From the IMG/VR virus record IMGVR_UViG_2563366822_000002: DNA of 12,926 bases, one strand, 5' to 3'. The notes under the pieces are model-generated. The model did not search any database. It was not told the DNA's origin and was given only the letters and a program-made list of their open reading frames with translations. Source of the DNA: a virus (taxonomy: Duplodnaviria; Heunggongvirae; Uroviricota; Caudoviricetes). The first letter of the stretch is position 1. Each line of letters starts with the position of its first letter. Positions 1,200 through 1,947 of this stretch are shown here, piece after piece. A program made the position numbers and the translations under genes.

Positions 1200-1861
1200 A
1201 TATCTACGAAAGAATTGATGGCAGCAAATACCGAAATATTTGGGTAGTTGGCGATCTGCACGGATGCTACACGAACCTGATGAAAAAACTGGAGACGATA
1301 GGATTCGACACCAAAAAAGACCTGCTTATCTCGGTGGGCGATTTGGTTGATCGCGGTACAGAGAACGTAGAATGCCTGGAATTAATCACATTCCCCTGGT
1401 TCAGAGCTGTACGTGGAAACCATGAGCAAATGATGATTGATGGCTTATCAGAGCGTGGAAACGTCAATCACTGGCTGCTTAATGGCGGTGGCTGGTTCTT
1501 TAATCTCGATTACGACAAAGAAATTCTGGCTAAAGCTCTTGCCCATAAAGCAGATGAACTTCCGTTAATCATCGAACTGGTGAGTAAAGGAAAAAAATAT
1601 GTCATCTGCCACGCCGATTATCCTTGTGATAAATACGAGTTTGGAAAGCCAGTTGATCATCAGCAGGTAATCTGGAACCGCGAACGAATCAGCAACTCAC
1701 AAGACGGGATCGTGAAAGAAATCAAAGGCGCGGACACGTTCATCTTTGGTCATACGCCAGCAGTGAAACCACTCAAATTTGCCAACCAGATGTATATCGA
1801 TACTGGCGCAGTGTTCTGCGGAAACCTCACATTGATTCAGGTACAGGGAGAAGGCGCATGA
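1196..1861 (+). CDS. ninI: Ser/Thr protein phosphatase (lambda PPase, NinI / ORF221 type)
   Basis: 221 aa with the metallophosphatase motifs GDLHG, GDLVDRG, GNHE and near-identity to lambda phosphatase (...[18 protein letters not shown]...[12 protein letters not shown]...); start ATG overlaps the ninG stop (ATGA). ninH, which lies between ninG and ninI in lambda, is absent. Confidence 0.9.
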
Positions 1862-1947
1862 GACTCGAAAGCGTAGCTAAATTTCATTCGCCAAAAAGCC
1901 CGATGATGAGCGACTCACTACTGGCCACAGTTTATTGGTTTTCGTAA
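1858..1947 (+). pseudogene. Remnant of a lambda-type Q antiterminator gene (first about 20 codons conserved, then divergent and terminated)
   Basis: ATG at 1858 overlaps the ninI stop exactly as lambda Q does and encodes [20 protein letters not shown], which matches my memory of the lambda Q N-terminus, followed by unrelated LLATVYWFS and TAA at 1945-1947. Too short for the supplied ORF track. Confidence 0.6.

Follow-up and report, generated by a model that had tools for sequence, protein, structure and literature searches.

Is the 29-codon open reading frame (ORF) that follows ninI in this caudoviral DNA a remnant of a lambda-type Q gene, and does it record the replacement of a lambda-like Q-qut module by a different one, as the initial annotation proposed? 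We addressed this question across the window, that is, the whole 12,926-nt stretch of DNA analysed (IMG/VR record IMGVR_UViG_2563366822_000002), using phage lambda, 5,426 complete E. coli genomes and 50,697 phage records for comparison. The replacement was borne out: the short ORF consists of lambda Q DNA, residues 25–207 of lambda Q and all of its PR'/qut/tR' DNA are absent from the window, and the next Q gene belongs to a different Pfam family, PF06323. Taken as a whole, it is highly likely that the ORF is a non-functional 5' remnant (hereafter the stub) situated at the hybrid joint of two lambdoid lineages.

The ORF behind ninI and the end of lambda homology

The features on the left-hand side of the locus are as follows.

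576–1199, plus strand: ninG (rap) of a lambda-type nin region, annotated as NinG in phage 434 and E. coli genomes.
1196–1861, plus strand: ninI, Ser/Thr phosphatase, directly after ninG, 631/653 nt identical to lambda ninI.
1858–1947, plus strand: probable fossil of the 5' end of a Q gene of lambda type; ORF of 29 codons plus stop, lambda-homologous over 1858–1928.
1919–1935, no strand: putative recombination joint zone, an imperfect microhomology with 12/17 matches to lambda Q in a base-by-base comparison.

Lambda-type ninE, ninF, ninG and ninI lie to the left of the stub, lambda ninE-ninG DNA being 96% identical to its counterpart in the window, and from ninI on the window DNA is collinear with lambda into Q. 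When lambda Q (translated from NC_001416) was compared with the whole window by tblastn, residues 1–24 matched window 1858–1929 with 22/24 identities (E 5e-9), the sole significant match, as all further ones had E above 1. In the DNA comparison, the stub and lambda Q agree throughout nt 1–61 (61/61) and at 69/71 positions of nt 1–71, with mismatches at 1919 and 1922. The stop of ninI and the start of the stub share the sequence ATGA, and the overlap is identical in lambda, where ninI occupies 43224–43889 and Q 43886–44509. Descent of the stub from a Q-lambda gene is therefore supported by its identity to that gene (69/71 nt, 22/24 aa) and by its position and overlap after ninI.

Alignment of 1858–1947 with lambda Q and its 5' region thus reproduced the match that the initial annotation had given as about 20 codons, extending it to residue 24, and the ATGA overlap described there agrees with the coordinates in both genomes. 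The ORF does stop after 29 codons, as had been reported, but the frame does not diverge through a frameshift: the homology simply ends, leaving Q codons 1–24, then five unrelated codons and the stop. Nor is the stub fused to ninI, as had been suggested, since the normal lambda gene overlap is retained.

Could so short a match be a chance resemblance, or a sequencing or assembly artefact? Apart from its length nothing speaks for either, and we give them practically no credence: the E-value within the window is low, the match is continuous with 650 nt of ninI homology and keeps the gene overlap of lambda, and the same stub recurs in phage 434 as well as in 620 independent complete genomes.

Beyond 1935, identity to lambda Q drops to 13/40, the random level, and megablast matches to intact lambda-type Q genes stop at 1928. 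A recombination joint had been proposed near 1915–1920; the joint itself is supported, but because lambda homology ends without a frameshift at 1919–1935 it is best placed in that interval, where illegitimate recombination at the short imperfect match would have formed it. A search for the rest of lambda Q in both the window and the phage 434 right arm found nothing, and we rejected on these grounds the insertion of a moron into an intact Q gene. Homology to lambda resumes only at Rz (window 8665–8913, 75% identity).

Other mosaic features were seen further left. Nothing in the window corresponds to the ninH segment of lambda, and ninG overlaps ninI directly (1199–1205) as opposed to the ninG-ninH-ninI order of lambda; this ninG/ninI transition is a second mosaic joint, 650 nt left of the stub, and is common to phage 434. 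Just upstream of ninE, positions 1–228 constitute the right end of an IS3-family element (IS1203/IS629-like transposase C-terminus), and E. coli matches to the phage part all start at 227–229.

Coding potential of the stub

The 29-aa product of the stub has no Pfam match, while lambda Q itself matches PF03589 (E 6e-58), and the stub does not belong to this family as the Antiterm domain, a four-helix body with HTH plus a zinc-ribbon arm (Q-lambda residues 61–207), is missing. The Q-lambda body (residues 61–113 and 153–207) and arm (114–152) are needed for contacts with the QBE, the zinc-binding domain of RNA polymerase (RNAP), sigma region 4 and NusA, whereas residues 1–44 are disordered at first and take on the nozzle fold only once the protein has docked (PMC9388147). 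Because body and arm are missing, a peptide of residues 1–24 would be incapable of these contacts, and with no DNA-binding body and no zinc-ribbon arm the stub is predicted to be unable to act as an antiterminator. With the ribosome-binding region of lambda and its start codon preserved, the stub probably continues to be translated, but we infer that the resulting peptide is without function.

A contrary reading is that the ORF encodes a functional 29-residue peptide, either a decoy that contains half of the segment forming the Q-lambda nozzle and is aimed at RNAP or at the Q of a superinfecting lambda-type phage, or a small protein retained for translational coupling after ninI. The intact lambda ribosome-binding site, ATG and ATGA overlap would fit such a role, as would the identity of the ORF across its phage 434, O157 and O111 contexts and the requirement for Q-lambda residues 1–38 in antitermination (PMC9388147). 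We nevertheless regard it as very unlikely, as none of the domains by which Q docks on DNA, RNAP, sigma or NusA is present in the peptide, which has no Pfam match, corresponds to a segment that stays disordered unless the remainder is docked (PMC9388147) and has been treated as a pseudogene by annotators.

The conservation of the ORF was considered separately. As there is no variation among the phage 434, O157 and O111 copies, a dN/dS estimate is impossible; between phage 434 and the window, about two differences would be expected in 90 nt at 98% identity and none is seen, a deviation that is not significant. The adjacent non-coding DNA (1948–2072) is equally conserved, at least 99%, so the conservation of the stub points to recency and not to selection. 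Furthermore, one public contig (protein P0003, Logan; equivalent to window 1858–2001) has a stop-loss version of the ORF lengthened to 47 aa, as would be expected in the absence of constraint.

The more specific proposal of a decoy or exclusion peptide, directed against the lambda-type Q of superinfecting phages or acting on RNAP directly, would explain why start, ribosome-binding site and frame are intact in all copies, though we rate its prospects as very slim indeed. A milder version of the active-stub reading is that the 71-bp stub would persist because it acts as a portable homology patch through which the lpxR-Q82 module could be transferred to any lambda-Q phage, a suggestion that draws on the identical stub behind both ninI and ninH.

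The lpxR cassette, the rusA scar and the Q82-type gene

Between the joint and the end of the new Q region, the following features were recognised.

1991–2025, no strand: terminator-like hairpin between the convergent stub ORF and lpxR, from RNA folding, with a putative function.
2073–3032, minus strand: lpxR, lipid A 3'-O-deacylase, an outer-membrane beta-barrel and cargo gene (moron); PF09982, E 6.8e-40; LpxR in phage 434 and E. coli annotation.
3033–3356, no strand: very AT-rich region upstream of lpxR, the right-hand part of the cassette (324 nt, 27.9% GC).
3357–3374, plus strand: probable fossil of the rusA 3' end, comprising its last five codons and stop and overlapping the ylcG start; 17/18 nt identical.
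3371–3493, plus strand: ylcG-like small ORF, YlcG family in phage 434 and E. coli annotation, aligning with ylcG of rusA-ylcG-Q loci.
3508–4197, plus strand: Q82-family late antiterminator, 229 aa; PF06323, E 1.1e-91, profile positions 1–216 of 220.
4181–4209, plus strand: candidate PR'-like late promoter, TTGCAA-17-TATACT, overlapping the end of Q; consensus scan.
4243–4272, plus strand: candidate tR'-like intrinsic terminator, hairpin plus T-run, about 55 nt past the likely start site; consensus scan and RNA folding.

The initial annotation had placed the module swap at the joint itself. The replacement stands, but the joint leads into an lpxR cassette and not directly into the new Q gene. 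This cassette is the AT-rich reverse-strand moron that had been noted downstream of the stub; it extends over about 1929–3356 (1.4 kb) with 35.6% GC, compared with 47.8% to its left, and its gene matches PF09982 over the full length (residues 10–318 vs profile positions 2–320 of 323). Its status as a moron is based on the deviant base composition and on ninI-Q and rusA-ylcG-Q relatives that are without the cassette.

Homologues of lpxR were found outside the phage setting. Among species-representative genomes, the sole relative of the cassette is a chromosomal lpxR of Citrobacter sp. ANG330 (L008 3001-3957), which adjoins phoPQ (73% aa, 72% nt identity), and a plasmid homologue occurs in NZ_AP045065.1 (83% nt). 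In both cases homology to the cassette is limited to the coding region, and lpxR appears to be a captured bacterial gene because homologues outside the cassette share the coding sequence only. No donor of the cassette flanks was identified among phage records, E. coli genomes and species-representative genomes.

The spacer between stub and lpxR (125 nt, 28% GC) holds the 14–15 bp hairpin, which is more stable as minus-strand RNA, the 3' end of lpxR (−19.1 kcal/mol, z −6.9), than on the plus strand (−16 kcal/mol, z −3.4). The U-run is found on the plus strand only, where the hairpin is followed by a T-rich run (UUUAUGUUUUUGUU) to about 2038, and the segment 1991–2038 may act as a terminator in both directions. 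An Rfam search of the window gave no RNA gene in this spacer. An 8-bp tandem duplication (ATTTTATT twice, 1955–1970) lies just past the stop codon of the stub and is present in the O157 and O111 copies, with a single copy in phage 434. As for lpxR expression, the consensus scan yielded only a weak promoter-like site on the minus strand at 3299–3271, and a strong hairpin lies 3' of the gene; a passage of PMC6393859 citing Ogawa 2018 reports lpxR transcription in EHEC as Pch/Ler-dependent.

To the right, a search of positions 2900–3700 against the complete E. coli genomes returned two classes of match: 620 genomes with the full lpxR-ylcG-Q arrangement and about 520 genomes with rusA-ylcG-Q (~87%), the latter matching only from query 458–464, i.e. 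window 3357–3363. Alignment with the rusA-ylcG-Q loci of two E. coli genomes identified 3357–3374 as the sequence GAACCGGGGAATGAATGA, the 3' end of rusA, contiguous with the ylcG-Q homology, whereas the DNA left of about 3357 is unrelated to these loci. With the end of rusA at this position, the cassette appears to be bracketed by two gene stubs, the 5' end of Q-lambda on the left and the 3' end of rusA on the right. Alignment of the window to lambda for breakpoints, as had been advised, thus located the left edge and the resumption at Rz, and the rusA end adds a second scar that marks the other parent.

The protein encoded at 3508–4197 is 100% identical to the 'Q82-like' protein of phage 434 and, judging from its sequence, is probably the working Q of this phage. 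PF06530, PF03589 and PF06323 represent the Q21, Q-lambda and Q82 families, which are without mutual sequence similarity (PMC9388147). The HMM comparison, which placed this protein in PF06323 as against PF03589 for lambda Q, upholds the claim of an unrelated Q, whereas its description as larger is only marginally justified (229 aa vs 207 aa). A solved structure related to the Q82-type protein was looked for and none was found.

This gene also has its own candidate late promoter and terminator, as had been proposed, at the level of consensus matches, such sites being no more numerous in the window than in shuffled sequence; the phage 434 record has a terminator annotated at the place equivalent to 4243–4272. 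Our own reading of the sequence adds an extended −10-like TGGTATGTT at 4221–4229, which we take to be where a sigma-dependent pause element would sit, with a geometry as in phage 82.

The arrangement has potential consequences for transcription. Past the stop of the stub, PR transcripts would continue untranslated and antisense to lpxR for about 1.4 kb, passing the terminator-like hairpin, before reaching ylcG-Q, and because of this passage the expression of the Q82-type Q would depend strongly on N antitermination. In the lysogen, lpxR would be expressed from its own signals.

Several further RNA and cargo elements were observed in the right part of the window. The transcript from PR' to the terminator (4204–4273, plus strand) gave a sub-threshold match to STnc240, a Salmonella sRNA family (28 bits, E 0.99), and may be another late-promoter leader RNA catalogued as an sRNA. 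An STnc100-like RNA (RF02076) at 5380–5584 on the plus strand (41.5 bits, E 2.7e-6) falls just under the gathering score of 47, other Rfam matches in the window being sub-threshold only; it ends in a strong terminator (5555–5580) directly upstream of a SASA esterase gene, and a 2026 preprint describes a prophage sRNA related to STnc100, PasD2, at this position. The SASA-family carbohydrate esterase itself (5667–7517, plus strand; DUF1737 + SASA + DUF6645) has 53–61% GC, in sharp contrast to the 30–40% GC of the membrane-protein region before it, and adds a further block of cargo to the region downstream of the new Q. The non-coding esterase-holin interval (7520–7960) includes terminator-like sites at 7821–7838 and 7883–7909 (plus strand) and 7540–7524 (minus strand); the Pas sRNA preprint places PasA in this interval of related prophages.

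Distribution and origin of the hybrid

The lpxR gene with its 3' flank was detected at 99% identity or more, in one copy each, in 620 of the 5,426 complete E. coli genomes, and the stub-to-flank joint likewise in 620. Together with the 620 genomes that have the full lpxR-ylcG-Q arrangement, these equal counts, obtained in three separate searches and not as a per-genome intersection, indicate strict linkage of the stub, the lpxR cassette and the ylcG-Q82-type genes. The hybrid is present in about 11% of the complete E. coli genomes, mainly EHEC/EPEC-type strains, and only two of the 50,697 phage records, both of phage 434, carry the cassette (megablast). No copy of the cassette without scars was found in either collection, and the hybrid appears to have arisen once and then spread.

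The left neighbour of the stub is ninI in 431 of these genomes and ninH in others, e.g. O111, in which no difference is seen from the ATG of the stub rightward. The two contexts fit a subsequent homologous recombination with phages of the lambda-Q type, at the stub or inside it. We did not adopt them as proof of a crossover inside the stub, with which they are consistent, since the identity from the ATG on leaves the O111 crossover point traceless.

The closest relatives carry the same scar. Phage 434 CPT_434_64 (GenBank OL657226) has the same ORF and the same joint, with ninI, lpxR, a ylcG-like gene and the Q82-like Q as neighbours, and runs collinearly with it from window position 229 to 8913 (98% identity). 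Its record annotates the stub as 'antiterminator Protein Q P03047, N-terminal fragment', neither the stub nor the rusA scar is discussed in the genome announcement (PMC9119081), and our literature search found no paper combining phage 434 with LpxR. The window differs from phage 434 in the 8-bp duplication, the IS3-family element upstream of ninE and the region right of the spanin genes. In E. coli O157:H7, a prophage pseudogene (e.g. ECpv15279_RS04155) is 100% identical over 1780–2080 within the same ninG-to-Q gene order and is annotated by PGAP as 'antitermination protein, incomplete, missing C-terminus'; this prophage, for whose Q protein the EDL933 entry uses the name CP-933K, is without the SASA esterase segment of the window. 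What the window shares with the lambda Q (PF03589) module is the first 24 codons and the ninI overlap.

The stub has therefore already been recorded, in the phage 434 GenBank record and as a truncated pseudogene by NCBI PGAP, both in O157:H7 and in genomes related to it. It is an ordinary, annotated mosaic scar that adds no new biology, and the paired-scar anatomy and single-origin count are tidy additions. It would record the exchange of a lambdoid late-gene switch for an unrelated Q family, along with the virulence-linked lpxR, in a single hybrid that has since reached about every ninth complete E. coli genome, chiefly those of attaching-and-effacing pathogens. Because the Q/qut allele sets late-gene and cargo expression, knowing that the switch is of the Q82 type and not the lambda type helps both with annotation and with predicting how such prophages behave on induction.

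We propose that one parent would have supplied ninG-ninI-Q of the lambda type, and the other rusA-ylcG-Q of the 82 type together with the late promoter and terminator belonging to that Q, the 1.4 kb AT-rich cassette with lpxR on the opposite strand coming to lie between the DNA of the two. The joint would have cut Q-lambda after about codon 24 and rusA five codons before its stop, and for this reason the recombinant would be left with a single Holliday-junction resolvase, NinG, and a single late antiterminator of the Q82 type, together with a short scar of each lost gene. As to the direction of the swap, in which the initial annotation had a lambda-like module give way to a different one, the joint alone does not tell which side was incoming.

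The same arrangement could also have been reached stepwise and not through a single three-way joint. Either a Q'/'rusA joint formed first and the lpxR cassette was later inserted exactly there, or lpxR first entered rusA of a Q82-type phage that then recombined with a lambda-Q phage. In lambdoid mosaicism, cargo genes (morons) sit at pre-existing module boundaries. This established preference, and the chromosomal and plasmid lpxR genes that share the coding region only, which implies flanks of separate origin, lend a stepwise history some plausibility. Each version, however, calls for an intermediate, and neither an lpxR cassette without Q' nor, in a more indirect search, a Q'/'rusA joint without lpxR was found among the 5,426 complete E. 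coli genomes or the 50,697 phage records. We therefore hold a stepwise history to be possible but rather doubtful; under it the stub would still be a fossil, as only the order of events differs.

The proposed exchange between two lambdoid parents has the properties of the mosaic module joints and morons described for lambdoid phages in the Hendrix/Casjens model: the homology breaks sharply near a gene boundary, cargo of deviant composition lies between conserved genes, and functions are replaced by analogous, non-homologous ones, with a Q82-type gene in place of Q-lambda and NinG kept where RusA is lost. Compared with the usual mosaic joints, a recognisable gene stub from each of the two parents flanks the cargo here, which makes the joint a tidy example and not one different in kind.
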